Below, piece after piece: positions 3,001 to 26,020 of a DNA stretch of 64,000 nucleotides. The stretch is from positions 434,001 to 498,000 of the forward strand of contig JASTWF010000034.1 in the NCBI GenBank assembly GCA_030390025.1. The letters are read 5' to 3'. The stretch is from Squalus acanthias (lineage: Eukaryota). The notes beneath the pieces were generated by a model. The model saw nothing but the letters and a program-made list of their open reading frames with translations. It was not told the DNA's origin and did not search any database. A program made the translations under genes and the position numbers. How positions within the stretch are numbered: the stretch's first letter is position 1; each line of letters opens with the position of its first letter.

Positions 3001-4680
3001 CTCTTAAAAAGCCGTGTGACTGGTCCTGCCTCTTCACAAAGGCTGTGTGACAGGTCCTGTCTCTTTAAAAGCCTGTGTGAGTGCCCCTGTCTCTTAAAAA
3101 GCATGTGTGACTGTTCCTGGCTCTTTAAAAGACAGTGTGAGTGGCCATGTCTCTTTAGAAAGCCTGCGTGACTAGTCATGTCTCTTTATAAAGCATTGTG
3201 ACGATTCCTGTCTGTTTAAAAGCCTGTGTGAGTGGTCCTGTCTCTTTAGAAAGCCTGTGTGACTGGTCCTGTCTCTTTAAAAAGCCTGTGTGACTGGTCC
3301 TGTCTCTTTAAAAAGCCTGTGTGACTGGTCCTGTCTCTTCAAAAAGCCTGTGTGACTGGTCCTGTCTCTTTAAAAAGCCTGTGTGACTGGTCCTGTCTCT
3401 TTAAAAGCCTGTGTGACTGGTCCTGTCTCTTCAAAAAGCCTGTGTGACTGTCCTGTCTCTTTAAAAGCCTGTGTGACTGGTCCTGTCTCTTTAAAAAGCC
3501 TGTGTGACTGGTCCTGTCTCTTTAAAAGCCTGTGTGACTGGTCCTGTCTCTTTAAAAGCCTGTGTGACTGGTCCTGTCTCTTTAAAAGCCTGTGTGACTG
3601 GTCCTGTCTCTTCAAAAAGCCTGTGTGACTGGTCCTGTCTCTTAAAAAGCCTGTGTGACTGGTCCTGTCTCTTAAAAAGCCTGTGTGACTGGTCCTGTCT
3701 CTTTAAAAAGCCTGTGTGAATGGTCCTGTCTCTTAAAAAGCCTGTGTGACTGGTCCTGTCTCTTCAAAAGCCTGTGTGACTCTTCCTGTCTCTTCGAAAA
3801 GCAAGTGTGACTGGTCCTGTCTCTTTGAAAAGCCTGTGTGACTGGTCCTGTCTCTTTGAAAAGCCTGTGTGACTGGTCCTGTCTCTTTGAAAAGCCTGTG
3901 TGAATGGTCCTGTCTCTTGGAAAAGCCTGTGTGAATGGTCCTGTCTCTTTAAAAAGCCTGTGTGACTGGTGCTGTCTCTTTCAAAAGCCTGTGTGAGTGG
4001 CCCTGTCTCTTTAGAAAGCCTGTGTGACTGGTCCTGTCTCTTTAAAAAGCCTGTGTGACTGGTCCTGGCTCTTTAAAAAGCCAGTGTGAGTGGCCCTGTC
4101 TCTTTAGAAAGCCTGCGTGACTGGTCCTGTCTCTTTAAAAGCCGTTGTGACTGGACCTGTCTCGTTAAAAAGCCGTTGTGACTGGTCCTGTCTCTTCAAA
4201 AAGCCTGTGTGAGTGGCCCTGTCTCTTCAAAAAGCCTGTGTGACTGGTCCTGTCTCTTTCAAAAGCCTGTGTGACTGGTCCTGTCTCTTTAAAAAGCCTG
4301 TGTGACTGATGCTGTCTCTTCAAAAGCCAGTGTCAGTGGTCCTGTCTCTTTAAAAAGCCTGTGTCAGTGGCCTTGTCTCTTTAAACAGCCTGTGTGACTG
4401 GTCCTGTCTCTTCAAAAAGACTGTGTGACTGATCTTGTCTCTTCAAAAAGCCTGTGTGACTGTTCCTGTCTCTTCAAAAAGCCTGTGTGACTGGTCCTGT
4501 CTCTTTGAAAAGCCTGTGTGACTGGTCCTGTCTCTTTAAAAAGCCTGTGTGACTGCTCCTGTCTCTTCAAAAAGCCTGTGTGTCTGGTCCTGTCTCTTCA
4601 AAAAGCCTGTGTGACTGGTCCTGTCTCTTTCAAAAGCCTGTGTGACAAGTCCAGTCTCTCTAAAAAGCCTTTGTGAATGT
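1..4680. repeat. 30-31 bp tandem satellite (AAAAGCCTGTGTGACTGGTCCTGTCTCTTT[A]), about 150 copies, runs off the left edge
   Basis: Unit visible continuously; the short ORFs here (KRQDQSHRL repeats) are translations of the repeat. Confidence 0.97.
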
Positions 4681-5189
4681 TTTTTGTCACTGCCTGTGGC
4701 TCCGGCCTCTTGTTTAGGTGTTCATCGCATGTTATACAATTAAGAGGAGTTGGAATGGATGTTTTTTTTTTAAACAGGGGACCATGGATTTTGGTGCCAC
4801 AGGGGTGTTGATGGTGCAGGATTACTGAGACTATTTCTTTGACACTGAAGTGACTTCACTGAGTTACGGAGAAAGCTTTGCTGGAAAAGTAGTGTGAAGA
4901 ATTGAAGCCCTAGGACTAGAAACCCGTCATTGACTGCAGTGGAACTGAATATCAGGCGCTGCGTGTAACGGGCGCCCGATCCGATACCACCCGTTTAACC
5001 CACGCCCGAGACACATTTCTCGGCTCCTGTCAGTAGACATCGGCAAATATCAAATGTCACAGTGTGCTGGTGAATTGGACTAAGACTTTTCCTCTCAAAG
5101 GCTCGGCTTGAAACCATTCAGAGACATTTGTTATCATCCGAGACAGATTGCTCGAGGGGTGGGGAGATATAAGAGTTGTATCTAAAATT

Positions 5190-5370
5190 AATTACAAGCA
5201 TTTCTGTCTCATCCGAAACTCTGCTGTCCGTGTCCTAACTCGCATCAAGTCCCGTTCATCCATCACCCCTGTGCTCGCTGACCTACATTGGCTCCCGGTC
5301 CGGCAATGCTTTGATTTTATAATTATCATCCCCGTGTTGAGCCCCAACACATTGCCAAGTGTCCAGTAAA
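5190..5370 (+). mobile_element. L2-type LINE ORF2 C-terminal fragment
   Basis: NSAVRVLTR..SRSSITPVLADLHWLPV motif typical of the L2 ORF2 C-terminus. Confidence 0.7.
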
Positions 5371-5579
5371 GGATTTGCATCCCGAAAATGCCATACGTCA
5401 CTTTGTTTAGTATTTAGTATTTTACCATAAGTATGTCTCATCCCCAGGGTCAAAGGTGAATTTCTACTATTTGCATCAAGGGGCACAGGGAGGGGTTAGA
5501 GTTCGGCTCGGACTGTCGCACAAAACACCATCATAACCAAGTTCCAACTTCATGTCACTCACCATCCAGGCTGGAACAA

Positions 5580-5965
5580 TTTTTTATTCATTCATGGGAT
5601 GTGGGCGTCGCTGGCAAGGCCACATTTATTGCCCATTCCTAATTGCCCTTGAGAAGGTGGTGGGGAGACACCTTATAAAACTAAATGGCTTGCTCGGCCA
5701 TTTCAGAGGGCAGTTAAAAGTTAATCACATTGCTCTGGGTCTGGAGTCACATTTCGGCCAGACTGGGTAAGGACGGCAGATTTCCTTCCCAGATAGGTTT
5801 TTATAAAAATCCTGTAGTTTCATGGTCACCATTCTTGATATTAGCTTTTCATTCCAGATTTGTTTAATTAATTGAATTTAAATTCCCCAGCTGGTGGGAC
5901 TTGAACTCTGGATCATTTGTCCAGTCATCTGGTTTACTAGTCCAGCAACATTACCACTATGCTTC
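5580..5965 (-). mobile_element. tRNA-derived SINE with LINE-derived 3' tail, nested in a LINE 3' fragment (about 5545-6125, +)
   Basis: Minus strand begins with A-box-like GCATAGTGGTAA and B-box-like GAGTTCAAGTCC; it ends ...GGCCTTGCCAGCGACGCCCACATCCCATGAATGAATAAAAAA, matching the LINE tail at about 14920-14972. Confidence 0.7.
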
Positions 5966-6124
5966 CGTACCCTTCAAATATATCGCCGTTCCTTCATCGT
6001 CACTGGGTCAAAAGCCTGAAATTCCTTCCATAATAGTATTGTGGGAGCACCTTCACCACAGGGGCTGCAGTGGCTCAATTTGAAGGCCGACCATTTTCTC
6101 ACGGGTAACTAGGGATGGGCAAGA

Positions 6125-8292
6125 ATACGGGAGGAGGCCATTTGGCCCATTGTGTCATCCGTGGTCGAAATAGAGCTCTGCACCCTAATCCCACTTTCCA
6201 GCTCTTGGTCCTTAGCCCTGTAGGTTACAGCACTTCAAGTGCATATCCAAGTACGTTTTAAACGTGATGAGGGTTTCTGCCTCGACCACACTTTCAGGCC
6301 GTGAGTTTCAGACCCCCACACCCCTCTGGGTGAAAACATTTCTCCCCATCACCCCTCTAATCCTTCTACCAATTAATTTAAATCTATGACCCCCGGTTAT
6401 TGACCTCCCTGTCAGGGCAAATAGTTCCTCCCTATCGACTCCAGCTAGGCCTCTCATAATTTTATACACCTCAATTAAATCTTCCCTCAGCCTCCTCTGT
6501 TCCAAAGTAAACAACCCCAGGCTATCCAATCTTTCCTCATAGCTAAAATTATCCAGTCCTGGCAACATCCACGTAAATCTCCGCTATAATGTCTCTCGTG
6601 CAATCACATCGTTCCTGTAATGTGGTGACCAGAACTTTACACAGTATTCTAGCAGTGGCCTAACTAGTGTTTTATACAGTTCTAACATAACCTCCCTGCT
6701 TTTATATCCTATGCCTCGGCTAATAAAGCAACGTATCCCACATGCCTACTTAACCACCCTATCTATATGTCCTGATATATTTATAGATATGTGGAAATGT
6801 ACTCCAAGTTCCCTCTGTTCCTACCATTTATTGTGTATGCCCTCTTTTTTAGTCCTCCACCAATCCATTACCTCACACTTCTCCGAATTGAAGTCCATTT
6901 GCCATTGTTCTGCCCACCGGACCAGTCCATTGATATCTTCTTGCAGTCTACAGCTTTCTTCCTCACTATCAACCACACGGCCAATTTTGTATCATGTGCA
7001 AACTTCTTCATCATGGCCCTAGCATTGAAGTCTAAATCATTAATATATACCACAAATAGCAGGGGACCTAGTACTGAGCCCTGTGGAACCCCACTGGAAA
7101 CAGCCTTCCATTCACAAAGAACACCCGTTGACCATTACCCTTTGCTTCCTGCCACTGAGCCAATTTTGGATCCAACTTGCCACTTTCCCTTGGATCCAAT
7201 GACCAACCTGTCATGTGGGACCTTGTCAAAGGCCTTTCTAATATCTATGTGCACTACATCAAATGCACTCCCCTCATCGACCCTCCTCATTACCTCCTCA
7301 AAAAATTCAATCCTGTGAGTCAGACACGACCTTCCCTTAATATTACCATGCTGACTGTCCTTGATTAATCTGTGCCTTTCTAAATGCCGATTAATACTGC
7401 CCCTCAGAATCTTTCAATATTTTTTTCCACCACCAAGGTTAGACTGACTGCCCTGTAATTACTCGGTCTATCCCTTTCTCCCTTTTGAAACAATGGTACA
7501 ACGTTAGCAGTCCTCCAGTCCTCTGGCATCACGCCTGTAGCCAGAGAGGATTGGAAAATGATGGTCTGAGCCTCCGCTATTTCCTCCTCTGCCTCTCGTA
7601 AAAGCCTGGGATACATTTCATCCGAGCCTCGTGATTTATCTAATTTCAAAGATGCTAAACACCTTAATGTTTCTTCTCTCACTATGTTTGTCTCATCTAA
7701 TATTCCACACTCCTCCTCCTTAACTACAATGTCTGTATCGTCTCACTCTTCTGTGAAGACAGACACAAAGTATTTATTAAGAACCATATCCACGTCTTCC
7801 GCCTCCACACACAGATTAACTTTTTGGTCTATAATAGGCCAGACTCTTTCCTTAGTTATCCTCTTGCTCTTGATGTATGTATAAAACATCTTTGGGTTTT
7901 CCTTGCCAATATTTTTTCATGCCCTCTGTTTGCTTTCCTAATTTCCTTTTTAATTTCACCCCTGTACTTTCTATACCCCTCTCGGCTTTCTGTAGTATTG
8001 AGCTCTCGGTATCTGACAAAAGCTTCCCTTTTTGTTCCCTTATCCTACCCTGTATTCCCCTTGACAACTAGGGGATTCTACATTTTGAAGTCCCATCCTT
8101 TATCTTTGTGGGAATATATTTGCTCTGAGCCCTCACTATCACCTCGTTGAATGCATCCCACAGCTCTGACACTGTTTTCCAATTAAGAAGCTGTTTCCAG
8201 TCCACTTTTGCTAAATCACATCTCAGCTTAGTAAAATGGACCTTTCCCCAATTGAAAACATTTACACCTGGTCTTTCTTTGTCCTTTTCCAT
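6125..8292 (-). mobile_element. CR1 LINE, 5'-truncated, decayed ORF2
   Basis: Fragments WRTANVVPLFQKG..PSNYRAVSLT, VYINDLD..KFAHDTKL, YEERLDSLGLFTLEQRRLREDLIEVYKIM. Confidence 0.92.
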
Positions 8293-8294
8293 TA

Positions 8295-8660
8295 GGGGAT
8301 ATTTAATATAGATGTTCCAGATTGTAACGGGTTTTGACAGAGTAAGTAAGTCGGTTTCCAGAGGCAGAATTGTGGATAACCACAGGAAACAAATTTAAAG
8401 TAATTGGCAAAAGAACCAGAGGAGAGATGAGAATTTTCTTTACGCAGTGAGATGTGATCTAGAATGCACTGACTGAGAACGTGGTGGAAGCAGATTCAAT
8501 AGTAAATTTCGAAAGGGAATGGGACAATTAGATGAAGGGGAACTTTTATGGGGCTCTGATTAAAGAGTAGGACTGTGAATTGATAATTCTTTCAAAGAGA
8601 CGGCACGGACACGATGGGCCGAATGCCCTCCGTCTGTGATGTACCGTTCAATGATTCTAT
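8295..8660 (+). mobile_element. CR1 3' end fragment
   Basis: CR1 3' UTR motif ACGATGGGCCGAATG followed by a short tail. Confidence 0.7.
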
Positions 8661-8864
8661 GAGCGTGAGACAGAGAGAGAGAGAGAAGAGGGAGAGAGAA
8701 GAGGGGGAGATAGAGAAAGGGAGAAAGAGTGAAATAAAAATAGAGACTGAAAGACAGGGAGAGGTACAGAGGGAAAGTAATTAACTTTAAAAGGGGAATT
8801 GGATAAATACCTGAAGGGAAACAATTTGCAGGACTATGGGAAAAGAGCAAGGGAATGGGAATAA

Positions 8865-9366
8865 TCTGAGGGGTGAGGCCATGGTGGGATTTGAACATGA
8901 GGAGAAGAATATTTAAATCGAGTTGTCGCCGGATCGGCAGCCAATGTTGGTCAGTGATCACCGGGGTGACGGGTGAACGGGACATGATGTGTGTTAGGAT
9001 ATGGGCAGCAGAGTTTTGGATGAGCTCTGGTTTATGGAGGCTTGTTACTGGGAGGCCGGCCAGGAGAGTATTGGAATAGTCGAGTCTGGATTTAACAAAG
9101 GCATGGATGAGGGTTTATGCAGTGGAAGGGCTGAGGTGGAGCGGAGATGGGTGAAATTTTGGCGGTGGTAGTCGGCAGGCCTGGTGATTCAGAAGATATA
9201 TGTGTTCAGAACTCAGCTCAGGGACAAAGAGATCGCAGAGGTTGCAAACAGCCTGGTTCAGCCTCAGACATTGACCAGGGAGGGGGCCTGAATCGGGAGA
9301 TAGAGAATGGAGTTTGTGACGAGGACCGAAGACAATGGCTTCGCTCTTCCCAAGATTTAAATGCAA
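8865..9366 (-). mobile_element. L2-type LINE fragment
   Basis: HLNLGKSEAIVFGP and RSPVTPVITDQHWLPIRRQLDLNILLLMFKS motifs. Confidence 0.75.
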
Positions 9367-9608
9367 AAAATAATAGCACAGTGAAACATGGTTTACAGAT
9401 CTAATGGCTGGATATAGAGAGTTACCAGGGACACCAACAGCAGCAACGAATGAAGAATAGTAATACAGTTAGCAAAGGTTTGCAGGGTTAATAGCTGGAT
9501 AGAGAGACTTACCTGGAACAACAACTGCAGCAAGGAGGGGAGAGTAAATGACAAGAACAGTAATACAGTAAAACATGGTTAACAGAATAGCTGGATAGAG
9601 AGACTTAC

Positions 9609-9831
9609 CAGGAACACCAACAGCAGCAAGGAGCGGATAGTAAATGTATTGAACAATCAGAAGTGCGAAATAGATCCGATCGTCTAATGATAGCCAATCA
9701 TAATATTCTGAAAGATAGTCAAACTCCCAGCTGAAACTCCTGCCCATTGTTGTAGCATTCCAATCTACTGTTCTCAGATTCTGATCCATTGTTGTAGCAT
9801 TCCAATCTACTGCTCTCAGATTCTGATCCAT
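9609..9831 (-). CDS. First coding exon (N-terminus + TM1) of a GPR139/GPR142-like class A GPCR
   Basis: ATG at 9831; MDQNLRAVDWNATT..IVQYIYYPLLAAVGVP is 74 codons + 1 nt, ending at a consensus G|GTAAGT donor (phase 1); N-glycosylation sequons; YYP.L..VGVP is the TM1 pattern of this family. Confidence 0.8.
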
Positions 9832-9866
9832 TGTTGTAACATTCCAATCTACTGTTCTCAGATTCC
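9745..9866 (-). repeat. 42-bp tandem repeat x3 at the receptor N-terminus (NLRTVDWNATTM[DQ])
   Basis: Three near-identical units AATCTGAGAACAGTAGATTGGAATGCTACAACAATGG on the minus strand. Confidence 0.9.
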
Positions 9867-9954
9867 GACTCCCTCTCTGTGGAGCAGCGCGCTGATCCCT
9901 GTTAGTGCCGGAGGTGATGCTCTCACTGACACTGTGGGATAACACATTGAAAGG

Positions 9955-10108
9955 AGTCCCTTATTAATAGAAGAGGGAAACACTGCACTGATACAATCAG
10001 AGTCCATGGAGACAGACATTAATTACAGTCACGAAACAAACATCTTCAGTTAACCCATGGAGACTGACATTAATTACAGTCACTGAACAAACAGCTTCAG
10101 TTAACCCC
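9955..10108 (-). promoter_or_regulatory. Candidate promoter of the GPCR exon: TATA-like TATTAATAA plus a 51-bp tandem duplication containing TAATTA
   Basis: CTATTAATAA at 9961-9970 (minus strand); two copies of CCATGGAGAC(A/T)GACATTAATTACAGTCAC..CTTCAGTTAACCC at 10004-10108. Confidence 0.4.
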
Positions 10109-10332
10109 TTTCAATCCAACACTTTTTGTACCACAGTAAAGTTGAACATTTACCTGGTCCGGATGGGATGTATGAGGGTTGCAGAGGGAAGGAATGGTGA
10201 AATAGCACAGGCTCTGGCCAGAATCTTTCAATTCTCCTCGGATATGGGAATGGTGCCAGAGGAGTAATACTAGAGGCGGAAGTGTAACCATATTAGATAG
10301 GGACAGACTAAAAGACTACGAAAAATTCCAAA

Positions 10333-13300
10333 ATGGTTTTAGAATGCATGTACGTAAACGCACAAAGTGTGGTGAATAAGTTTGGTGAGCAACAAGCACA
10401 ATTAGTCGTGTGGCAATATGATGTTGTGGCAATAACAGAAACGTGGCTTAAAAAGGATGAGAACTGGGCAATTAATGTTCAAGGGTACAAGGTGTTCAGA
10501 AAAGATAGGGAATGTAAAAAGGGAAGTGGGGTGGCAGTGCTGATGAAGGAAGACATTGTAGTGTTGGAAAGGGAGGATGTTCTTGAGGGGACAAGGGCAG
10601 AATCCATTTGGTTAGAGTTGAGGCGCAAAAAGGGTATGATCACGCTATTGGGGCTATTCTACAGACCTCCAAATAGTGAGAGGGAGGTAGAGGAGCAAAT
10701 CTGCAGGGAAATCACAGGGATAAGCAAGAGCTATAGAGTGGTGATATTGCGGGACTTTAATTACGCAAATATCGATTGGGATAATGCTAGGGTAAAGGGA
10801 AAGGAAGGGGAGGAATTTCTGAAATGTGTTCAGGAGAACTTCCTTGACCCGTATATTCCTGACCCAACTTGGAAGGAGGCATTGCTGGATCTGGTGCTGG
10901 GGAATGAGGTGGGCCAGGTCGACCAAGTGTCTGTGGAAGAACATTTGGATACGAGTGATCATCGTATCATAAGATTTAAATTAGCAATGGAGAGGAGCAA
11001 GGAACAATCTAGAGTGGAACTTCTAAACTGGAATAGGGCTAACTTCAAAAGGATGCGAAAGGATCTAGCCAGAGTAAAATGGAACCAAAGACTGACAGGA
11101 AAAACTGTAACGGAACAATGGGTGATCTTTAAGGAGGAGATGTTCTAAGTGCATGCTAGGTACATTCCAACAATTGGGAAGGGTAAGGGAACCAAATCAA
11201 GGGCTCCTTCAATGAAGAGGGAGATAGAGAAGACGATGAAACAAAAAAAAGAGAGTGTATGATGAATGTCAGGTGAATTCTTCAAGGGAGAACCAGAACA
11301 AATACAATAAGCTGAGAGGGGAAGTGAAGATGAAAATAAGATTGGCAAAGAGAGAATATGAGAGTAGAATGGCGGTTAACATAAAAGGGAACCCACAAAT
11401 CTTCTACCAGCATGTATACAGTAAGCGGGTAGTAGGAGGCGGGGTAGGGCCGATCAGGGACAAAGAAGGTGATATATGCATTGAGGCGCAAGGCAAGGCT
11501 AGAATACTCAATGAGTACTTTGTATCAGTGTTTAATAAGGAGGTGGATGCTGACAAAATATCAGTAGAAGTGGAAAATGCTGAAGCAATGGAAGGGGTGC
11601 AAATTGATAGACAGGATGTACTAGAAAGGTTGGTTATGCTTAGAGTGGATAAGTCGCCTGGTCCAGAAGGTTTGCATCCCAATTTGCTAAGGGAATTGGG
11701 AGATGAGATAGCGGAAGCTGTTGCCATAACTTTCCAATCTTCCATAGGATGGCGCCCGAGGATTGGAAAGTGGCAAATGTGGCACCATTGTTCAAGAAAG
11801 GGTGCAAGGACAATCCCAGTAACGGCAGGCCGGTCAGATTAAAATTAGTGGTGGGTAAAGTTTTCGAAACAATATTCAAGGAAAAAAGTTACGGGCACCT
11901 GGAGAGGTTATCTCATTGAAGCATACAAAATTATTACAGGGCTTGATACGGTGGATGCTGGGAGAATGTTTCCTTTGGCTGGGGAGTCTAGAACTAGGGG
12001 CCACAGCCTCAGAATAAAGGAGAGACCATTCAGGACTGAGATGAGAAGACATTTCTTCAAACAATGGGTGGTGAATCTTTGGAAGTCTCTACCCTAGAGG
12101 TCTGTGGAGGCTCAGTCATTGGGTATATTCAAAACAGAAGTCGATAGATTTCTGACTAGTGAGGGCATCAAGGGATATGGCAATAAGGCCGGGGAATGGA
12201 GTTGAGGCAGAAGTTCAGCCATGATCTTATTGAATGGTGGAGCAGGCTCGAAGGGCCGAATGGCCTACTCCTGCAGGAATGACATATGAGACGACATTGG
12301 GTCGATTGGGCTTATACACGCTGGAGTATAGAAGAATGAGAGGGGATCTCATCGAAACATATAAAATTCTGACAGCTCTGGACAAACGAGATGCAGAAAG
12401 AATGTTCCCGATGGTCGGAGAGTCCAGAACCAGGGGTAATAATCTAAGGATAAGGGGTAAGCCATTTAGGACAGAAATGAGGAAGAATTTCTTCACCCAG
12501 AGAGTGGTGAACCTGTGGAATTCTCTACCACAGAAGGTAGTTGAGGCTAAGTCATTAAATATATTCAAGAATGAGTTAGATATATTTCTTAAAGCTGAAG
12601 GTATCAAGGGATATGGGGAGAAGGCAGGTACAGGGTACTGAGTTTGGATGATCAGCCATGATCTCAGCGAATGGCGGAGCAGGCTCGAGGGGCCGAATGG
12701 CCTACTTCTGCTCCTATCTTCTATGTTTCTATTTCTTATGTTCTTATGCTTACGCTAATTATGGAGAACCAACATGGATTTGTAAAAGGTAGATCGTGTC
12801 TCACGAAACTAATTGAATTTTTTGATGAAGTAACAGGGAGGATTGATGAAGGGAATGCAATGGATGTTGCCTACATGGATTTTCGCAAGGCGTTTAACAA
12901 AGTATCACATAGAATGCTGGTTAACAAAATTGAGGCCCATGGAATAGGTTGGTCAGTGGCAGCTTGGATAAGGAATTGGCTTAAGGACAGAAAACAGCGA
13001 GTTGTGGTAAATGTCTGTTTTTCAGACTGGAGGATGGTAGACAGTGGCGTTCCCCGAGGGTCAGTGCTGGGGCCACTAATTTTGTTGATACATTTAAATG
13101 ACCTGGATATTGGAATACAAAGTAGAATTTCTAAATTTGCCGATGACACCAAACTTGGGGGTGTGGCAAACAGTGATGATACCAATTGACTGCAACAGGA
13201 CATAGAAAGTCTAGCAGAATTGGCAGAGAAGTGGCAGATGGAATTTAATACAGAGAAGTGAGGTGATGCATTTTGGCAAAAGGAACAGGGAGAGGCATTA

Positions 13301-14055
13301 TACACTTAATGGCACAATTTTAAAGAGTGTGCAGGGACAGAGGGACCTGGCGGTTAATGTGAATAGGTCCCTGAAGGTGGCGGGACATATTGAGAGAGTG
13401 GTTAACAAAGCATATGGGATCTTGGGTTTCATAAATAGAGGCAATGAGTACAAAAGTAGAGAAGTTATGCTGAATCTTTATAAAGCGCTGGTTCGGCCAC
13501 AACTGGAGTATTGCGTCCAGTTCTGGTCACCACACTTTAGGAAGGATGTGGAGTCCTTTGAGAGGGTGCAGAGGAGATTTACCAGAATGGTTCCGGGGAT
13601 GGGGGCTCTTAGCTACAAGGACAGGTTGGAGAATCTGGATTTGTTTTCATTAGAGCAAAGAAGGTTGAGGTGTGATTTGATAGAGGTGTACAAGATTATG
13701 ACAGGTTTGGATAGGCTAGACGGGGAAAGTCTGTTTCCACTAGTTGATGGTACAAGGACTAGGGGACACAGATGTATCTTTTTTTGGCAAGAGATACAGG
13801 AGGAATGTGAGAAAAAACTTTACGCAGCGAGTGGTGAGTACCTGGAACTCGCTGCCGATGGAAGTGGTGGAAGCAGAGACACTCAATGTTTTCAAGGGGA
13901 GACTGGATAGGCACTAGAGCGAAATAAACTTGCAGGGATATGGGGATAGAGCGGGGGAAATGAGAATGACTGGATTGCTCTGCAGAGAGCTGGCACGAAC
14001 TCGATGGGCCAACTGGCCTCCTTCTGTGCCGTTATGACTTTATGACTCTATGACC
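10333..14055 (+). mobile_element. CR1 LINE with near-complete decayed ORF2 (APE endonuclease + RT), interrupted at about 11905-12748
   Basis: EN motifs YVNAQS, ITETWL, FYRPPNS, DFNY, LLDLVL, SDH; RT motifs QHGFVKGRSC, SGVPRGSVLGP, KFADDTKL; 3' tail TATGACTTTATGACTCTATGAC. Confidence 0.95.
11905..12748 (+). mobile_element. Two tandem CR1 3' fragments nested inside the long CR1
   Basis: Two successive ORF2 C-terminus + 3' UTR segments (each ending GGGCCGAATGGCCTACT); the host frame breaks near HLER and resumes at LIMENQHGFVKG. Confidence 0.85.
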
Positions 14056-14975
14056 TTCCCTCCATCATATGTAGAAGTGGGGATGTTCGCTGATGATTGC
14101 TCAGTGTTCAGTTCCATTCGCAACTGCTCAGATAATGAAGCAGGTCATGCCCGCATGCAGCAAGACCTGGATGACATTCAAGTTTAGGCTGATAAGTGGC
14201 GAGAGAAAATCACACCACACAAGTGCCAGGCAATGACTATCTCCAACAAGTGCCATATCCCCTTGACATTCAATGCGATGATCATCACCAATTCCCCCAC
14301 CATCAGTATCCTGGGGGTCACCATTAACCAGAATCTTCACTGGACCAGCCACATAAATACTGTGGCTAAAAGAGCAGGTCAAGGCTGGGTATTCTGCGAC
14401 GAGTGTCTCACCTCCTGACTCCCCAAAGCCTTTCCACCATCTACAAGGCACAAGTCAGGAGTGTGATGGAATACTCTCCACTTGCCTGGATGAGTGCAGC
14501 TCCAACAACACTCAAGAAGCTCGGCATCATCCAGGACAAATCAGCCCGCTTGATTGGCACCCAATCCACCATATTAAAAATACACTCCTTCCACCACCGG
14601 CGCACCGTGGCTGCAGTGTGTACCATCTACAAAATGCACTGCAGCAACTCGCCAAAGCTTCTTTGGCAGCACTTCCCAAACCTGCGATCTTCCACCAAGA
14701 CAAGGGCAGCATGAGCATGGGAACACCAACACCTGTAAGATTCCCTCCAAGTCACATACGATCCTGACTTGGAAGTATATCGCCAATCCTACATCGTCGC
14801 TGGGTCAAAATCCTGCAACTCCCTCCCGAACAGCACTGTGGGAGCACCTTCACCACACGGGCTGCAGCGGTTCAAGGAGGCGGCTCACCACCACCTTCTG
14901 AAGGGCTATTAGGGATGGGCAATAAATGCTGGCCTTGCCAGCGGTGGCTACATTCCATGAATGAATAAAAAAGAA
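14055..14975 (+). mobile_element. Second non-LTR retrotransposon family (CR1/Jockey-group-like RT), 3' part
   Basis: MFADDC, IYKAQVRSVMEYSPLAWMSAA motifs; ends CATGAATGAATAAAAAA. Confidence 0.85.
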
Positions 14976-14994
14976 AAACAAGACAGATGACAGT

Positions 14995-16483
14995 TGAAAT
15001 TGCATAAATTCCATAGATTCTAGAATGGTTCCCGCGGATTGGAATATCGCAAATCTAACACCACTATTTAAGAAACGAGGGAGAGAGAAAACGGGGACTA
15101 CAGGCCAGTTATCCTGACATCAGTAGTTGGGAAAATGCTTGAATATATTATTAAGGACGCGGTAACAGGGCAGTTAGAAAATTATAATAGGATTGGGCAG
15201 AGTCTACACGGATCTATGAAAGCGAAATTGGGTTTGACGAATCTGTTAGAGTTTTTGGAGGTTGTAACGAGCAGAATAGATAAGGGGGAGCCAGTAGATG
15301 TGGTGGATTTAGATTTTCAGAAGGCATTCGATAAGGGCCACACACGAGGTTATTAAACAAAATTAGGGCTCATGGGATTAGGGGTAATATACTAGCATGG
15401 GTTGAGGATTGGTTAACGGACAGAAAACAGAGAGCAGCAATAAACGGGTCATTTTCGGGTTGGCAGGCTGTAACTAGTGGGGTACCGCAAGAATCAGTGC
15501 TTGGGCCTCAGCTATTCACAATCCGCATCAATGATTTGGATGAGGGGACCAAAAGTAATATATCCAAGTTTGCTGATGATACAAAGCTGGGTGGGAATGT
15601 AAGTTGTGAGAACGATGCAAGGAGGCTTCAAGGAGATACAGACAGGCTAAGTGAGTGGGCAAGAACATTGCAAATGGAATATAATGCGGAGAAATGTGAA
15701 GTTAGGAAAAATAGTAAAGCAGAGTATTTTTAAAATAGTGAGAGATTGGGAAATGTTGGTGTTCAGATGGACCTGGGTGTACTTGTACGTGAATCACTGA
15801 AATTTAACATGCAGGTACAGCAAGCAATTAGGAAAGCAAATGGTATGTTGGCCTTTATTACAAGAGGATTTGAGCATAAGAGTAAAGACATCTTACTGCA
15901 ATTATATAAGGCCCTGGTGAGACTACACATGGAGTATTGTGTACAATTTTGGTCACCTTACCTAAGGAAGGATATACTTGCCAAAGAGGGAGTGCAACGA
16001 AGGTTCATCAGACTGGGTTCTGGGATGGGGCGGGGGGTTTTCCTATATGGACAGATTGAGAAGATTCGGCCTATATTCTCTAGAGTTTAGCAGAATGAGA
16101 GGTGATCTCATTGTAACAAACAAAATTCTTCCAGGGTCCATGTTAGATGCAGGGAGGATGTTTCCACTGGCTGGGGAGTGTAGAACCAGGGGTCACACTC
16201 GCAGAATAAGGGGTCGGCCAGTTAGGTCTGAGATGAGGAGAAATTTCTTCAATCAGAGTGTGGGGAATCTTTGGAAATCTCTACCTCTGAGGGCTGTGAT
16301 TGTTGAGTATATTCAAGACAGAGATCGATAGTTTTTGGATATGAAGGGAATCAAGGGATATTGGGATAGTTCAGGAAAGTGGAGTTGAGCTAGAAGATCA
16401 GCCATGATCTTTTAGAATGGTGCAGCAGGCTCAATTGGCCGAATGGCCTACTGCTGTGGCTATTTCTTATCTTCCTATGTTCT
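14995..16483 (+). mobile_element. CR1 LINE, 5'-truncated, decayed
   Basis: DVVDLDFQKAFDK, KFADDTKLGG, LYKALVRLHMEYCVQFWSP; 3' UTR and tail. Confidence 0.93.
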
Positions 16484-16737
16484 AACTCTCACTATCTATC
16501 CCCATCATTCTCTTTACCTCTCTTTACCTCTGCCTCTCTCTCTCTCTCTCTATGGCTGTCTACGGCTCTCCCCTGGCTGTCTTTCTCTCTCTCTCTCTCT
16601 GTTTATATCTCTCTATGCCGACTCTCTTTATTTCTCTTTCTCTCTCTTTTTCATTGACTGTCTCTCTCACTCTATCTTTGCCCTCTCTCCCTCTCAATCT
16701 CCTCCTCAATGTCTCTCTCCCCCTCATTCTCCCTCTG

Positions 16738-18384
16738 TATACAGTGGAGTTCCCCAGGTTTCAGAAGCCGGAGCTTGAAGGAGGTATACAGTGGAGGTCC
16801 CCAGGGTTCAGTACAGGGGGGCTAGGAGAGAGGTTACAGTGGAGTTCCCCCAGGGTTTCAAGTACTGGGGGCCTGGAGAGAGGTATACAGTGGAGTTACC
16901 CAGGGTGCATTCAGACTGGAGAAGGAACAGTGGAATTCCCCATGTTCAGTAACTGTGTCTCGAGGGAGGTATACAGTGGAGCTGCCCAATTTTCAGTACA
17001 GGTTCCGCGAGGAGGTATACCAGTGAGAATTTTCCCAGGGTCATAATGGTGTTTGGGGGGTGGTATACAGTAGATTTCCCAGGGTTTAGAACAGGGGGCT
17101 GGAGGTAGGCAAACACTGGACATACCCAGGATGCTGTACTTGGGGCTGGAGGGAGGTATATGGTGGAGTTCCCCAGGGTTCAGTACTGGGGTCTGGAGGG
17201 AGGTATACAGTGGAGTTCCCCAGGGTTCAGTACTGGGGTCTGGAGGGAGGTATACAGTGGAGTTCCCCAGGGTTCAGTACTGGGGTCTGGAGGGAGGTAT
17301 ACAGTGGAGTTCCCCAGGGTTCAGTACTGGGGTCTGGAGGGAGGTATACAGTGGAGTTCCCCAGGGTTCAGTACTGGGGTCTGGAGGGAGGTATACAGTG
17401 GAGTTCCCCAGGGTTCAGTACTGGGTCTGGAGGGAGGTATACAGTGGAGTTCCCCAGGGTTCAGTACTGGGGTCTGGAGGGAGGTATACAGTGGAGTTCC
17501 CCAGGGTTCAGTACTGGTGTCTGGAGGGAGGTATACAGTGGAGTTCCCCAGGGTTCAGTACTGGGGTCTGGAGGGAGGTATACAGTGGAGTTCCCAGGGT
17601 TCAGTACTGGGGTCTGGAGGGAGGTATACAGTGGAGTTCCCCAGGGTTCAGTACTGGTGTCTGGAGGGAGGTATACAGTGGAGTTCCCCAGGGTTCAGTA
17701 CTGTGTCTGGAGGGAGGTATACAGTGGAGTTCCCCAGGGTTCAGTACTGGGGTCTGGAGGGAGGTATACAGTGGAGTTCCCCACGGTTCAGTACTGGGGG
17801 CTGGAGGGAGGTAAATAGTGGAGTCACCAGGGTTCAGTACTGGAGTCTGGAGGGAGGTATACAGTGTAATTCCCCAGGGTATCAGTACTGGGGCTGGAGA
17901 GTGGTATACAGTGGAGTTCCCAGGGTTCAGTACTGGGGTCTGGAGGGAGGTATACAGTGGAGTTGCCCCAGGTCAAGTACTGGGGCTGGAGGGAGGTATA
18001 CAGTGGAGTTCCCCAGGGTCGAGTACTGGTGCTGTGCGGGGAGGTATACACGTGGAGTTCCACAGGGATCATTACTGGGGGCTGGAGGGAGGTATACAGT
18101 GGAGTTCTCCAGGGATCAGAAGCCGGGGCTGGAGGGAGGTATACAGTGGAGTTTCCCAGGGTTCAGTACTGGTGTCTGGGGTGAGGTATCAGTGGAGTTC
18201 CCAGGGTTCAGAAGCGGGGCCTGGAGGGAGGTATACAGTGGAGTTCCCCTAGGTCAGTACTGGGGGTCTGGAGGGAGGTATACAGTGTAATTCCACAGGG
18301 TTCAGTACTGGGGGTCGGGAGGGAGGTACAACAGTGGAAGTTCCCAGGGTTCAGTACTGGTGTCTGGAGGAAGATATACAGTGG
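16738..18384 (+). repeat. 47-bp minisatellite derived from CR1 RT coding sequence, about 35 copies, runs into the gap
   Basis: Unit TGGAGGGAGGTATACAGTGGAGTTCCCCAGGGTTCAGTACTGGGGTC; translates as WREVYSGVPQGSVLG. Confidence 0.93.
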
Positions 18385-18584
18385 NNNNNNNNNNNNNNNN
18401 NNNNNNNNNNNNNNNNNNNNNNNNNNNNNNNNNNNNNNNNNNNNNNNNNNNNNNNNNNNNNNNNNNNNNNNNNNNNNNNNNNNNNNNNNNNNNNNNNNNN
18501 NNNNNNNNNNNNNNNNNNNNNNNNNNNNNNNNNNNNNNNNNNNNNNNNNNNNNNNNNNNNNNNNNNNNNNNNNNNNNNNNNNNN
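18385..18584. other. Assembly gap (200 N)
   Basis: Run of exactly 200 N. Confidence 0.99.
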
Positions 18585-18728
18585 TGTGTGGGGGAGGGGT
18601 GTGTGTGTGGGGAGGGGTGTGTGTGGGGGAGTGGTGTGTGTGTGGGGAGGGGTGTGTGTGGGGGAGGGGTGTGTGTGTGGGGAGGGGTGTGTGTGTGGGG
18701 GAGGGGTGTGTGTGTGTGGGGGAGGGGT
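18585..18728 (+). repeat. G-rich tandem repeat (GGGGAGGGGTGTGTGTGT)n, potential G-quadruplex
   Basis: Repeated GGGG tracts with short loops. Confidence 0.85.
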
Positions 18729-18732
18729 CTGT

Positions 18733-18958
18733 GTGCAAACTTGGAGATATTAAATCTAGTTCCCTTGTCTGGATCATTCATATATATTGTGAATAGCTGG
18801 TGTCCAAGGACCGATCCCTGCGGTACAACTCTAGTCACTGCCTGCCACTCGGAAAAAAGACCCGTTTATTCCAACGCTTTGCTTTCTGTCTGCCAACCAG
18901 TTCTCTATCGAAGTCAATACCTTGCCCCCAATCCCATGTGCCTTAACTTTACATGCTA
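18733..18958 (-). mobile_element. Inverted CR1 RT fragment
   Basis: Minus strand reads VPQGSVLGHQLFTIYMND..ISKFA; diverged reverse complement of about 19169-19395. Confidence 0.88.
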
Positions 18959-20328
18959 GAGTCCATTATAAAAGATGTAATAGCAGAGCACTTGGAAAAC
19001 AGTGACAGGATCGGTCAACGTCAACATGGATTTACAAAAGGTAAATCATGCCTGACTAATCTACTGGAATTTTTTGAGGATGTAACTGTTAGAATAGATA
19101 AGGGAGAGCCAGTGGATGTGGTGTATTTGGACTTTCAGAAGGCTTTCGATAAGGTCCCGCATAAGAGATTAGCGTGCAAAGTTAAAGCACATGGAATTGG
19201 GGGCAAGGTACTGATTTGGATAGAGAACTGGTTGGCAGACAGGAAGCAAAGAGTTGGAATAAACGGGTCTTTTTCCGAGTGGCAGGCAGAGACTAGTGGG
19301 GTACCGCAGGGATCGGTGCTGGGACCCCAGCTATTCACAATATATATTAATGATCTGGACGAGGGAAATAGATGTAATATCTCTAAGTTTGCAGACGACA
19401 CAAAGCTGGGTGGGGGTGTGTGCTGTGAGGAGGATGCAGAGAAACTCCAGTATGATTTGGAAAGGTTGGGTGATTGGGCAGATGCATGGCAGATGCAGTA
19501 TAATGTGGATAAATGCGAGGTTATCCACTTTGGTGGCAAAAACAGGAAGACAGATTATTATTTGAACGGCAATAGATTGGTAAAAGGGGAAGTGCAACGA
19601 GAGCTGGGAGTCCTTGTGCACCAGATGCTGAAGGTAAGCATTCAGGTGCAGCAGGCGGTTAAGAAGGCAAATGCTATTTTGGCCTTCATAGCGAGAGGAT
19701 TCGAGTACAGGAGCAAGGATGTTATGCTGCAGTTGCACAAGGCCTTGGTGAGACCACACCTCGAGTATTCTGTGCAGTTTTGGTCGCCTTATCTGAGGAA
19801 GGATGTTCTTGCCATGGAGGGAGTGCAGCGAAGATTTACTAGACTGATACCTGGGATTGCAGGAATGACGTATGAAGAGAGATTGGGTCGATTAGGCTTA
19901 TATTCGCTAGAGTTTAGAAGAATGAGAAGGGATCTCATTGAAACTTATAAAATTCTAACAGGACTTGACAGACTAGATGCAGGAAGGATGTTCCCGATGG
20001 TGGGGGAGTCCAGAACTAGGGTACACAGTCTAAGGATAAGGGGTAAGCCATTTAGGACTGAGATGAGGAGGAATTTCTTCACCAAGAGAGTGGTGAACCT
20101 GTGGAATTCTCTACCAGAGAAGGCAGTTGAAGCCAATTCATTCAATATATTCAAGAAAGAGATAGATATATTTCTTAAGGCTAAAGGGATGAAGGGATAT
20201 GGGGAGAAAGCAGGGACAGGGTACTGAATTTGGATGATCAACCATGATCTCATTAAATGGAGGAGCAGGCTCGAGGGGCCGAATGGCCTAATCCTGCTCC
20301 TATCTTCTATGCTATGCTTCTATGCTTC
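18953..20328 (+). mobile_element. Young 5'-truncated CR1 with an uninterrupted 424-aa RT/C-terminal ORF
   Basis: ORF 18953-20227 with QHGF, YLDFQKAFDKVPH, SGVPQGSVLGP, KFADDTKL; 3' UTR and (TTCTATGC) tail. Confidence 0.96.
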
Positions 20329-20360
20329 TTCATCCCAGAAGCTATCTTCTCAGTAAGGGG

Positions 20361-21960
20361 TTAGAATCGGTGTCTTATGAGCCATTCACGGACGGCCCTT
20401 GCAGTGGCAACATTGTGCGCCTCCCTCCCACGTTGGTGCTGCTGATCCTCCTCTTCATCATCCTTATCCTCCTCCTCTCCCTCTTCCTCCTCCTCCTCCT
20501 CCTCAGGTGGTGCACCAATCCCTGGTGGCAATGGCTGGGTCCTCATGATTGCAATGTTAGCAAGCATGCAGCACACAAAAATGAAGAGGGAGACTCGCTC
20601 GGGAGAGTACTGCAGGGCTCCCCCTTAGTGGTCCAGACACCGGAACCGTTGTTTCAAGACACCCGTCGTCTGCTCAATGAGGTTACTGGTGGCGCTATGG
20701 CTCTCATTGTATTGGAACTGAGCAGCAGTGTTGGGGTTACAGAGCGGTGTCATCAGCCAGGTGCAGAGTGGATAACTTTTGTCCCCGAGGAGCCATCCAC
20801 TAGGTTGATGCGGTGTTGGAAGATGTTGATGACACCGGTCTGGCGCAGGATAAAAGTATCGTGGCTGCTGCCAGAATATAGGGCAGTGACGGCGAGTATG
20901 AGCTGTCTGTGGTCACAGACATACGTCACATTCAGAGAGTGGAAGCCCTTGTGGTTTCGGAACACCTCTGCATTCTCACGAGTTGCCCGCAATGCCACAT
21001 GCATGTAGTCCATGATGCCCTGAACTATGGGGAAGCCCGCTATCCTCGCAAAACCACATGTGCGTTCACCCTGTTTGTCCCAGGTGATGGGGAGAGATGT
21101 ACTGGCGTCTCCTCTTCTACGAAGCATTTTTCACCTCCCGGATGCAACAATGAACAGGGAAACAGGAGATATTCACTGTATCCCCAGTAGAAGCCTGAAA
21201 GGAACTGCTGTCTGAGAAATTCAGAGCCACTGTCACCTTCACTGCCACCGACAGAGACGTCCTGGTCCTGAGCTGAGGCTGCAGATCTGGTTGCAGGTGG
21301 CGGCAGAGCTCAGTGACCACCTCCTTGCTGAAGCCCAGCCATTGGAAACACTGCTCCTCAGACAAATGGATATAGGAAGAGAATTGGTTCCTGAATACCC
21401 TGGGAGGGTAAGGTCTCCTGTGCAGAGGCCTGATGGCCCTCATCCTTCTGGCCACGTTTGCCACTCTCACTCCGCGCCCCTGCTGCCTCTGAAGGTGAAG
21501 CTGGACGACCAGGCCCCGAGTTAGTGCAGCCCCCATCGAAGCTTCTAAATATCGTCAGAAGGAAAGTGACATAAAAATGAATCTCCAAAGCGGTGCCCAG
21601 GACCCAAATCTCATTCGGTCAGCTTCGAATCTCTCCAGACGTCTCTTTCCCTCTCAACATGCGTGTACCAAAAATTGTGCCGACAAGAAAAGTCAGGAAG
21701 CGGCCGCCTTTAATTAGTGCTCCCCCAGCCCCTCCCGTCTTGAAAACGTTCCCCTCTACCTGTCGTTCCTAGAGGCAGGCACTAAGGCAGGGGATGCGAC
21801 TCAATATCCGGTCTGGGGCGCTACCGGGGCGTTGCATGCTCGACTGACGTCATGATCTGCAGGCGCAGGAGATCGTGGCGGTAGTGTTTATTGCCAGCGC
21901 AAAACAACTAGTCAATTTCTCGAGCGGTGCTAAATTAGCCGCGCTCAGGCACTAAAAATC
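20361..21960 (-). mobile_element. PIF/Harbinger DNA transposon remnant: frameshifted HARBI1-like DDE transposase (about 21536-20361) plus upstream subterminal region
   Basis: [55 protein letters not shown] and [16 protein letters not shown] across shifted frames; acidic C-terminal tail. Confidence 0.88.
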
Positions 21961-21962
21961 TA

Positions 21963-22850
21963 GGGGGAGAAATTCAGTATCGCCCCATTTGGGGCTCAAT
22001 TATCGGCCGGGCGCAAAAATCAGCGCCTGGCGCTAATTATCGCCTCTGATTGCAAACTTGGCTTGTATTGCCCCTGGAATTGATTGGAGCGCTAAATCAG
22101 GCTTTTCACAGCTGTATTAAGGTGCAAAGGCCGAGGAGCGAGGCGTTACCTCAGAACACTGGCGAAGCTCATTAGATGTCAATTAGGAATGGAACACAGA
22201 CACAATGGCGCCGGCCAGTTCTTAAAGGGGAAGGTTGATCTTGCTCTCCATCCACATCCTGCTCATTGCAGCCTTGATTCTCGGCCTGGAGAGACCTGTA
22301 CATCAAATCTGCTGGAAAGAACAACGGAGAGGCCCAGGGAAAGAGCTCAGAGTGCAGTCCCAACAGTTTCTTCTAAATCGATACAAGGAAGGGCAAATGA
22401 AAATGAACCTGCAAAGTGCTGCTCAGTACCCAAAACTCCTTCACACAGCGTTGAATCTCTCCAGAAGTCTCTCTCTCTCTCAGAATACGTGGTGCAAAAA
22501 TGTCACCAACAAAAATGCAGGAAGCGGTCGCCTTTAAATAGCGCTCCCCCAGTCCCTTCCTGACTGCAAAACGCTCCCCTCAACCTATCGTTGCTAGCAG
22601 CAGGCAGTCAGGCAGGGGGCGCCACACAATATCTCGTCCGGGGCGCTACTGGGCCGTTGCGCACGTGACTTATGTCAATATCTGCTGGTGCATGAGTTTG
22701 TGGCGGTAGTGTTTAGCGCCGCCGCAGAATGTCTAGTTAATTTCGTGAGCTGCACAAACATCGCCGCGCATGGGCGCTAGATGCTTTGTTCCCCATTGGT
22801 GCCCTCTTAAGGCACTAAGTGGAGGCGCTACCCAACCGACTTTCCTCCCA
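21963..22850. mobile_element. Non-autonomous Harbinger-related element (MITE-like)
   Basis: Imperfect terminal inverted repeats GGGGAGAAATTCAG / CCGACTTTCCTCCC; 22490-22780 is a diverged direct copy of 21660-21955. Confidence 0.55.
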
Positions 22851-23075
22851 CATGTTTAAATGTGTTTCCCACTTTGTCGTTCCCCATCCCATCCGCGCTG
22901 CTGTCAGCTATTGATTGTGAACATGATATCGTGTTAACAAGATTCAAATATTCTATATTCAACTCAGGCAAATTTTTATTGAAGGTGACTCTTTATTTAA
23001 CGAATTTCAGTCTGCTACCTACACTGAACATTGGTAACAGATCAGAAGAATGCTGTCTTGGTTTAGGAGACATTC

Positions 23076-23200
23076 ACCTCTGGCGAAAGATCATCGACCT
23101 GAAACGTTAACTCTGTTTCTCTCTCTCTCCACCAATGCTGCCTGACCGGCTGAGGATTTCCACCATTTTGTGTTTTCATTTCAGATTTCCAAAATCCGGA
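23076..23200 (+). mobile_element. Penelope-like solo pLTR fragment with a mutated hammerhead-like core
   Basis: Matches 57125-57225 (ATCGACCTGAAACGTTAACTCTGTTTCTCTC..GCTGCCTGACC..TTTCAG). Confidence 0.75.
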
Positions 23201-24512
23201 GAATGTTGTGTTTGTTTTCACCTAATGATCGGTATGGTTACTTACACCGACTCACAGGAACAAATCCTGGCAGATCACATCCACATCTTTAAATGACTGA
23301 AATAACCGCTAATCATTCAGTTCCAGTCAGTGTCTCCTTTCCACCCTCTCCAGTTCTGCATTAGTGGCACTGCTTCTGATGGTTAAAGTAGGATTACAAG
23401 GACAATTTACATTCTCACAAAATGTTCATTCAGACAGATTTCAATACATTTATTTCCAATCAATGTTTTAAATTTGTAATTGGATCCCATGGCCGTCTGT
23501 CACAGTTCAGTGGATCTCTCAGTGAGACCCAGAGTGATTCTCTATTGCCTCCTGCTGTACTTCAGGATAAACAATCCCAGCCGATTGTAACTGAAGTACT
23601 GAGGATAAGAAAATACTTTGATATCTTCTCCTCTAATATTTTCTGCACAAGTTGGAAAGAACAGGTGAAAAAGTACAAGGATAAATCTCTTCCATTTGTG
23701 TTCAGATACTTTACAACAGCCACCGGTGGCACTGTGCCTGTGGGATAAATCATCTGATTTCGATGCTGAGAAATGCATTTAGTGGTACATTACCTGGTCA
23801 ACCATCACTAATTCAGAGTCCATTATTTGCAATGTTACTTGGCAAATCTTCCTTTCAATGAGCTACAATTTGTGTATTTCAACAAACATGCAGAAAACAC
23901 AATCTTCAAAACATATCTGACAGGCCAGTTATCTTTATAACTGCAGTACACTTGTATTTATTATCTCAGCATTGTCATATTACATCCGTACATTTTACTT
24001 ACAATTGCCTGTAATTATTGCATGCCAAGGTTGCAGTTACTTATATTGCTGTTGCATTCATTTTCAGTTCTAAATAGAATGGATATTCTAACCAGGAGCA
24101 GGAATCCAAGCGGGATTTCCCGCTCACTAACACAGAAGCGAATTGCACCGCTCCAAATGCTGACTGATCCCGGGACACGAAGGCTTCCTGAGAGGCTCTG
24201 GTCCTTTATGTCCCTGGTACCTCGGACGGTGCTTTTGTCTGCTGGGCTAAATATAGATCGATTATTTAATCTCTCCTTGATCAAACATCTGTTACTTTCA
24301 TATTGTATTTATTCCCATTTCATTTATTGATTCCACAATATATTCCCGATTATTCTTACAATAAACCCTGTATTCAGCTCCACAGGCAATAGGATTAGAT
24401 TATATAATTGAATGTCGCTCGTGAGTTGCAGATTTCAACCTGAATACCATCAAACTGCTGCCTTTGCTCCCAGCCTGATGTATAATTTCCCTAGTTATTT
24501 CCGTTTTCACAG

Positions 24513-25414
24513 TGAACTTAGTGACAATTGTGATACTGTCTCGGGGAAAGTGCGGTCTCTCCAAATGTGTCACTCGCTACCTGGTGGCCATGGCATCAGC
24601 GGATCTACTGGTCGTTATCCTCGACCTGATATTGAGGCACATTCCGATTCTTTATAGTGAACAGTTTCATTTCCTGCGGGCCATCCCCGTGTGTAATATC
24701 CACGCCGTCCTGCTGTTCGCAGCCACAGACTGTTCTGTCTGGTTCACCGTCACTTTCACCTTTGATCGATTTGTGGCCATTTGTTGCCAGAAGCTGAAAA
24801 CTAAACTTTGCACCGAGAAAACGGCAGCTGTGGTTCTGGGAACAGTGACTGTGCTGAGCGGTTTAAAGAACATCACCTGGTATTTTATGTTCACAGATCG
24901 GTATTGGCTTCGGAACATCCCCTGGTTTTGTGTGGTCACAATGGATGTTGAATATTCACTGGTCTGGGGACCAATCGAGTTCCTTCATTATATTCTCACC
25001 CCGTGTGTCCCATTTGTGGTGATTGTGCTGCTCAATGTTGTCACCGTCAGACACATTTTAGTGTCCAGCAGAGCCTGCAGGAGACTCCGGGGTCCCAGCA
25101 GTGGGGAGAGTGCCAGAGACCCAGAGATGGAGAGCCGCAGGAAATCCATCATTTTACTGCTTATTATCTCCGGCAATTTCATCCTGTTATGGGCAGTGTT
25201 TATGGTGTATTCTATAAGCAGCCGGATGTGGAATTTGGTGTATGAGTCTGGAAAACTACCTTATTATGTAATGGAAGTGGGATTCATGCTGCAGCTGCTG
25301 AGTTGCTGCACAAACACTGGGATTTATGCCGTAACCCAGACTAAGTTCAGAGAGCAGTTGAAGAATGTGGGGAAATATCCCTTTACTCTGATTGTAAAAT
25401 ACATTAAAAGATGA
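24513..25414 (+). CDS. Terminal coding exon (end of TM1 to TM7 and C-tail) of a GPR139/GPR142-like class A GPCR
   Basis: Acceptor TTTCCGTTTTCACAG|TG (phase 1); open 300-codon frame with NLVTIVIL, YLVAMASADLL, IPVC, SVWFTVTFTFDRFVAICC, PWFC, LTPCVPF..LLN, SCCTNTGIY; stop TGA at 25412-25414; no own ATG/N-terminus. Confidence 0.92.
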
Positions 25415-25621
25415 GAAAAAGCAGAGACTTTGCAGCCTGAGAGTTCCCTGGGTCTGATATTCTGGTGAGCCGCTCTCCACAGTGCAGGGCCGGCGGGGCC
25501 GGTGTTCTGGGACATTAACATTGCAATGGGGCTGGAGTCACATATTAGCTAAGGTCGGCAGATTTCCTTCCCTAAAGGCCATTAGTGAACCAGATGGGTT
25601 TTTACGACAATCATAGTCTAG

Positions 25622-26020
25622 TCTACTCAATCTCTCCTCATAGGACAATCCCCCATCCCAGGAAACAGTCTGGTGAACATTCGCTGCACTCCCTCTATGG
25701 CAAGTATATCCATCCTTAGGTAAGGCGACCAAAACTGTACACAGTACTCCAGCTGTGGTCTCACCAGGGCCCTATATAATTGCAGTAAGATGTCTTTACT
25801 TTTATAATCAAATGCTCTTGTATTAAAGGCCAACATACCATTTGCTTTCCTAATTGCTTGCTGTACCTGCAGGTTAACGTTCAGTTATTCTTGCCGAAGG
25901 AAAGCCAGGTCCCTCTGAACACCAACATTTCCCAATCTCTCACCATTTCAAAAATACTCTGCTTTTCTATTTATCCTACCAAAGTGGATAACTTCACATT
26001 TCTCCACCTTATATTCCATC
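25622..26020 (-). mobile_element. CR1 RT C-terminal fragment (short SINE piece at about 25527-25612 adjacent)
   Basis: LYRALVRPQLEYCVQFWSPYLR motif. Confidence 0.88.

Follow-up and report, generated by a model that had tools for sequence, protein, structure and literature searches.

Two receptor exons flanking a scaffold gap in Squalus acanthias very probably belong to two head-to-head genes

Two receptor exons lie on opposite strands of a 64,000-nucleotide stretch of the 3.7-Gb Squalus acanthias genome (the window; G000:C2671:434001-498000). They almost certainly represent two different, head-to-head members of a large two-exon GPR139-like receptor family, one of which (gene C) is complete while the other (gene D) is cut at a scaffold gap. 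A first-pass annotation had read them as two complementary halves of one receptor and offered three accounts: a mis-oriented contig at the gap, a real inversion that split the gene, or two divergently oriented members of a cluster. Only the last of these stood, supported by a separate minus-strand exon 2 left of the window; the one-receptor headline and the first two accounts were given up. Genes C and D are predicted gene models, and their splicing and expression are likewise predictions made from sequence.

Results

Features of the window. The minus-strand exon 1 and the plus-strand exon 2 were found as first described, with matching phases. The features of the window are as follows.

1..9608, minus strand: in-window part of the 35.7-kb intron of gene C, continuing left to gene C exon 2
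1..4676, no strand: right end of a 31-bp satellite (21.7 kb; C2671:416929-438676; 702.6 copies)
9426..9550, minus strand: two tandem copies, both decayed, of the 3' end of exon 1 plus donor, at the start of the gene C intron
9609..9831, minus strand: gene C exon 1, 223 nt (74 codons plus 1 base), ending in G before the donor GTAAGT
9950..10107, minus strand: family promoter-like region, a duplicated 51-bp unit with a conserved core motif and a TATA-like site
16737..18384, no strand: 47-bp satellite cut by the gap (35 copies; 1.65 kb)
18385..18584, no strand: scaffold gap, a 200-N run whose true length is not fixed by the N count
18585..18735, no strand: TG/G-rich microsatellite bordering the gap on its right, found in the gene D copy only
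18736..24512, plus strand: 3' part of gene D intron 1 (96-97% identity to A-type paralog introns)
24513..25414, plus strand: gene D exon 2, 902 nt (299 codons plus stop), intact, CAG/AG acceptor

The sequence directly before gene D exon 2 reads ...TTTTCACAG. The 200 N are presumably a fixed placeholder, and the repeats around the window exons are taken to be CR1 elements, judged by ORF motifs. Searches of the whole window by tblastn/blastn, by pattern, and with two profiles identified neither an exon 2 on the minus strand nor, on the plus strand, an exon 1 (of either type) or the core of the family promoter. The earlier statement that exon 1 is missing from the plus strand between the gap and 24513, and exon 2 from the minus strand of 1-9609, thus holds window-wide.

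The region at 9950..10107 is a putative promoter. Within 9744-9865, the N-terminus is made of a 42-bp (14-codon) repeat with an N-glycosylation-type motif, present in one to five copies in paralogs. The decayed copies of the exon 1 end (88.9% over 36 nt and 91.7% over 24 nt) carry GT donors and occur in paralogs too, where they could serve as alternative donors.

In-frame joining is a family-wide property. Scripted joining of both window exons reproduced the reported 374-aa product, with VGVPVNLVTI across the joint. This in-frame fit is what any two family members give. Donor and acceptor phases were identical in 24/24 gap-free paralog pairs (phase-1 intron), whose introns ranged from 10.3 to 35.9 kb (median, 16.0 kb). 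When window exon 1 was combined with 26 paralogous exon 2s, a full 373- to 374-aa ORF resulted in 23 cases, 17 of the 26 gave an identical junction peptide, and the three that failed were broken exon 2s. Any exon 1 fits any exon 2 because the family keeps one phase-1 intron at the same site, and a splice phase match in this receptor family should be treated as uninformative on which exons belong together.

Window exon 1 has its own exon 2. The first-pass annotation had stated that a minus-strand exon 2 left of the window, plus a plus-strand exon 1 inside the gap, would make these two ordinary genes. The former was found: G000:C2671:407903-407002, 26 kb beyond the left edge of the window, is an intact minus-strand exon 2 (299 codons, AG acceptor). 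There is no N between it and window exon 1, the window gap being the only N run in 184001-760000. The resulting intron of gene C is gap-free and 35,705 bp long, of which 22,855 bp is tandem repeat, mostly the 31-bp satellite, and exon 2 falls outside the window because this satellite swells the intron. Introns of the family can therefore hide 20 kb of satellite. The intron is the second longest measured (C', 35.9 kb; others, 10.3 to 26.2 kb), which counts against the two-gene reading. The left neighbors of gene C are genes A (plus; 261316-276048) and B (minus; 331317-312775). Gene B is intact and is colinear with gene C across both exons and on to the 47-bp satellite upstream of them.

A second exon-1-like unit lies in the gene C intron at C2671:412408-412082, 4.2 kb from gene C exon 2. 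It could be the one used by gene C instead of window exon 1, and this also counts against the two-gene reading. Short exon-1-like units inside the intron, 4 to 14 kb from exon 2, were seen in 8/24 paralog pairs as well as in gene C and orphan E. They share the promoter core and a GT donor, and the first ATG is kept in 5/10 and is ATA in 5/10. These units may serve as alternative first exons, each with its own promoter, or may be degenerate remnants.

The two window exons group with different subfamilies. Separate trees were built from the 5' halves (exon 1 plus 1 kb of intron) and 3' halves (0.7 kb of intron plus exon 2) of 24 gap-free pairs. Three of the 27 paralog exon 2s were left out: C1923:545067, which is without its own exon 1, and C2705:97677 and C1241:678161, in which the exon 1 end is altered. 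In the 5' tree, the half containing window exon 1 was sister to that of C', a second copy of gene C on the same scaffold (support, 1.00), and the 5' halves of A-type genes formed a clade apart from it. In the 3' tree, the exon 2 left of the window was likewise sister to that of C' (0.99), and gene D exon 2 was sister to C1725b (0.99) and grouped with A-type genes. The exon 2 sequences of genes C and D differ from each other at ∼7% of positions. With an exon 2 of its own and a different subfamily from gene D, window exon 1 is not one half of a receptor completed by gene D exon 2.

Across the same 24 pairs, chosen as near relatives of one or other window exon rather than at random, likeness of the 5' intron to that of the window correlated negatively with exon 2 likeness to D (Spearman, -0.55; P = 0.005) and positively with exon 2 likeness to C (+0.42; P = 0.04); kinship among the pairs makes these P values loose. 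When 5' likeness was taken from the 139 coding nucleotides of exon 1 only, the correlations were weaker (C, +0.44; D, -0.32, P = 0.13). Likeness to the 3' intron end of gene C was correlated with neither of the 5' measures.

A second copy of gene C and the overlap of the contigs. C' (C2671, 650.7 to 696 kb) lies 244 kb away and is a gap-free copy of gene C of ∼98% identity with the same layout. Its exon 1 is 99.1% identical, its 35.9-kb intron carries the same 702.6 copies of the 31-bp satellite, and its exon 2 is frameshifted. C' (minus) also forms a gap-free head-to-head pair with gene F (plus). The 47-bp satellite occurs upstream of genes B and C', with 185 copies (8.7 kb) in the latter; the translation of its unit resembles part of the neighboring retroelement ORFs, which suggests an origin from a retroelement fragment.

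The best colinear chain between the contigs flanking the gap comprised 58.2 kb at 96.9% (C2671, 268.6 to 452.4 kb versus 452.7 to 696.4 kb). It starts at the right contig's first base outside repeats (A position 268624) and stops at the left contig's last such base (C' position 694489). The chain covers 86% of the unmasked bases of the A block, 97% of the C block, and 2% of the middle 66 kb, and duplicated blocks are also present outside it. This overlap fits either a real tandem duplication with its junction here, in which gene D would be truncated, or an end-to-end placement of two haplotypes.

The missing exon 1 of gene D. The search for partners beyond the window, suggested by the first-pass annotation, succeeded for one exon only: exon 2 was found for window exon 1, and an exon 1 for gene D was found neither in the window nor among the exon-1-only scaffold ends examined. 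In 11 A-type genes, exon 1 ends 6,979 to 8,065 bp upstream of the site matching the start of gene D homology. That homology stops ∼150 bp right of the gap, where it is replaced by the microsatellite, and this counts against the two-gene reading. The microsatellite is absent from the corresponding site in 14/14 A-type copies, and its edge could mark a real breakpoint. At least 13 loci matched the gene A mid-intron at 97% or more, a lower bound from 40 scored candidates of 8565, and all of them run past the gene D junction. Searches for exact patterns taken from the junction and the microsatellite gave no match elsewhere in the genome; a pattern designed for the left side that would be expected falls in a common repeat (1215 matches) and is uninformative on gene D.

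Two candidate locations of the missing exon and one mechanism for its loss were rejected. The start of C3707 begins in an A-type intron and carries exon 1 only, and it overlaps the gene D intron at 96.6%, identifying it as a paralog. The start of C1923 has the same overlap problem (91.8 to 95.8%). Recombination of the repeat copy upstream of C with the gene D intron, deleting exon 1, was also dismissed: the first 216 nt of gene D are 96.8 to 98.6% A-type and 89.7% to the C' flank. Because the C3707 and C1923 scaffolds begin inside such introns, the assembly does break there. In contigs from public runs covering 16500-26000 and 9300-10300, which are short and paralog-collapsed, no listed piece crossed the gap and no listed loose end carried an exon 1-exon 2 splice.

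By comparison with the paralogs, ∼7 kb of satellite on the left and 7 to 8 kb of intron plus exon 1 on the right would be missing at the gap; for a genuine join and a complete gene D, this would amount to at least 14 kb. The assembly would have broken between the 47-bp satellite and the G-rich microsatellite; satellites and simple repeats are named as causes of assembly gaps in an earlier report (PMC7757076). Gene D exon 1 likely lies in the sequence missing here. That it exists, unassembled or allelic, is judged somewhat more probable than that it is truly absent.

Discussion

Alternative explanations. A real inversion that broke up a single gene, so that its exon 1 now points away from its exon 2, would account for the phase fit, and many inverted repeat copies lie around the exons. 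It is nevertheless highly improbable, since on either side of exon 1 the colinearity with intact gene B and with C' runs on unbroken, and this exon has its intact partner at C2671:407903. The 5' halves nearest to exon 1 belong to genes outside the subfamily of D, and the single nearest paralog expected for both halves of a split gene was not found, that of exon 1 being C' and that of exon 2 being C1725b. A mis-oriented contig, whose flip would restore one gene, agrees with a strand change that coincides with the scaffold gap, but geometry rules it out almost entirely. No flip joins the window exons because both turn their 5' sides to the gap, where the intron sides would have to be. The left contig extends for at least 268 kb and the right for at least 307 kb without N; with the former flipped, exon 1 and the join would be separated by at least 259 kb containing genes A and B and the exon 2 of C, and with the latter flipped, exon 2 would lie upstream of exon 1. 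There may still be a mis-join or flip at the gap, yet it cannot make the two window exons one gene. Had the gene really been split, the finding would have exposed either a fault in the assembly or a receptor-disabling inversion; neither holds.

Within the two-gene reading, gene D could be a real 5'-truncated duplicate without exon 1, a tentative view given rather less than an even chance. At the microsatellite, a tandem block duplication or a deletion would have fused the satellite upstream of C with mid-intron sequence of A type. The end of A-type homology at a copy-specific microsatellite points this way. So does the finding that the last 184 kb of the left contig are repeated in order by the right contig from its first non-repeat base, as expected of a tandem duplication with its junction here. 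Gap-free cluster DNA also contains partial genes: C2671:518210 and C2671:1555210 each have exon 1 but no exon 2, and C1923:545067 is a supernumerary exon 2. However, gene D exon 2 and its acceptor are intact, its nearest relative is C1725b rather than neighboring gene A, among 27 exon 2 copies other than that of C that were retrieved together with their upstream sequence, 26 are preceded by a same-strand exon 1 of their own, and the assembly does break inside such introns. It is also conceivable, if unlikely, that the contigs are two divergent haplotypes of one cluster placed end to end. This false duplication would make D allelic to gene A and C' to gene C, and the head-to-head layout itself would be an assembly product. 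The colinear chain spanning the contig ends, the equal satellite copy number in C and C', and the recurrence of the last 40 nt left of the gap once, in C', are in line with it. A gap between duplicates on one scaffold is listed among the signs of false duplication in one report (PMC9516828), and colinear duplicates do flank the window gap. Against it stand a divergence of 2 to 4%, which is high for alleles, the unshared middle 66 kb, the other duplicated blocks beyond the chain, and a dozen further A-type copies whose closeness to D is about that of gene A. If the contigs beside the gap are overlapping haplotypes, copy counts for the family would be inflated.

Very improbable is an invertible receptor-choice switch, in which a single promoter and exon 1, lying between two oppositely oriented intact exon 2s, would serve both. 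The flanks of these exon 2s form a 3.1-kb inverted repeat (88%), and recombination between them would flip a 50-kb segment and move exon 1 from receptor C to receptor D. The switch requires both that gene D lacks exon 1 and that the flip occurs. If true, it would be a germline-polymorphic or somatic switch in a vertebrate GPCR cluster.

The receptor family. Two separate head-to-head genes would be in keeping with a family that grew by duplication of blocks tens of kilobases long in both orientations. Gene D exon 2 had at least 131 scored matches at 84 to 100% amino acid identity, from 4679 first-look candidates, and the 28 family members listed on the scaffold of the window comprise 15 on the plus and 13 on the minus strand. 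A recurring cassette consists of two back-to-back exon 1s ∼2.7 kb apart with putative closely spaced divergent promoters (C2705:46088/48794 and 111554/114251; C3470:40302/43135 and 94408/97157; C1923:14401/17057; C2671:1555210/1557866). In gap-free DNA 20 kb right of the window, an intact-looking plus-strand exon 1 with promoter lies at C2671:518210-518432. No plus-strand exon 2 follows until that of gene F, 225 kb on, and a 17.8-kb 79-bp satellite lies beyond this exon 1 at C2671:548760-566573. At C1923:544166-552639, tandem exon 2 copies 7.6 kb apart follow one long-type exon 1, representing a partial duplication or alternative last exons. The receptor family, and the second promoter-exon unit in many of its introns, are better targets for further study than the window locus.

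Comparison with known receptors and assemblies. The product of gene D exon 2 is assigned to the class A (rhodopsin-type) GPCRs by Pfam 7tm_1 (PF00001; 67 bits against a cutoff of 30.5; profile positions 2 to 260 of 260). Both exon 2 products had human GPR139 as their best PDB match (7vug-7vuj and 9m42; E values, 8e-10 for D and 2e-7 for C), and the receptor shares a likeness to this class A GPCR that includes a DRY-like FDRF motif. GPR139 is a conserved single-copy gene. Matches to it scored 33.6 to 41.7 bits over 281 residues (gene D, 41.7 bits), and the family has at least 131 copies here. Because this match is too low for the orthologue of a conserved single-copy gene and the copies are many, orthology fails, and genes C and D are predicted to encode class A GPCRs that are related to GPR139 but not its orthologues. 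A limited look at the literature on GPR139 expansion in sharks and cartilaginous fish returned nothing on this receptor family, which does not imply its absence from print.

Odorant, vomeronasal, and TAAR clusters are tandem multigene receptor clusters that undergo birth-and-death evolution. The family described here resembles them in its mixed orientation, block duplications, and partial and frameshifted copies, and differs in having its coding region in two exons separated by a 10- to 36-kb intron. In sequence layout, the window is also like the gap-associated partial genes and false duplications of vertebrate assemblies, as portrayed in two reports (PMC9516828; PMC7757076), with near-identical blocks flanking a gap whose edges are a satellite and a simple repeat.
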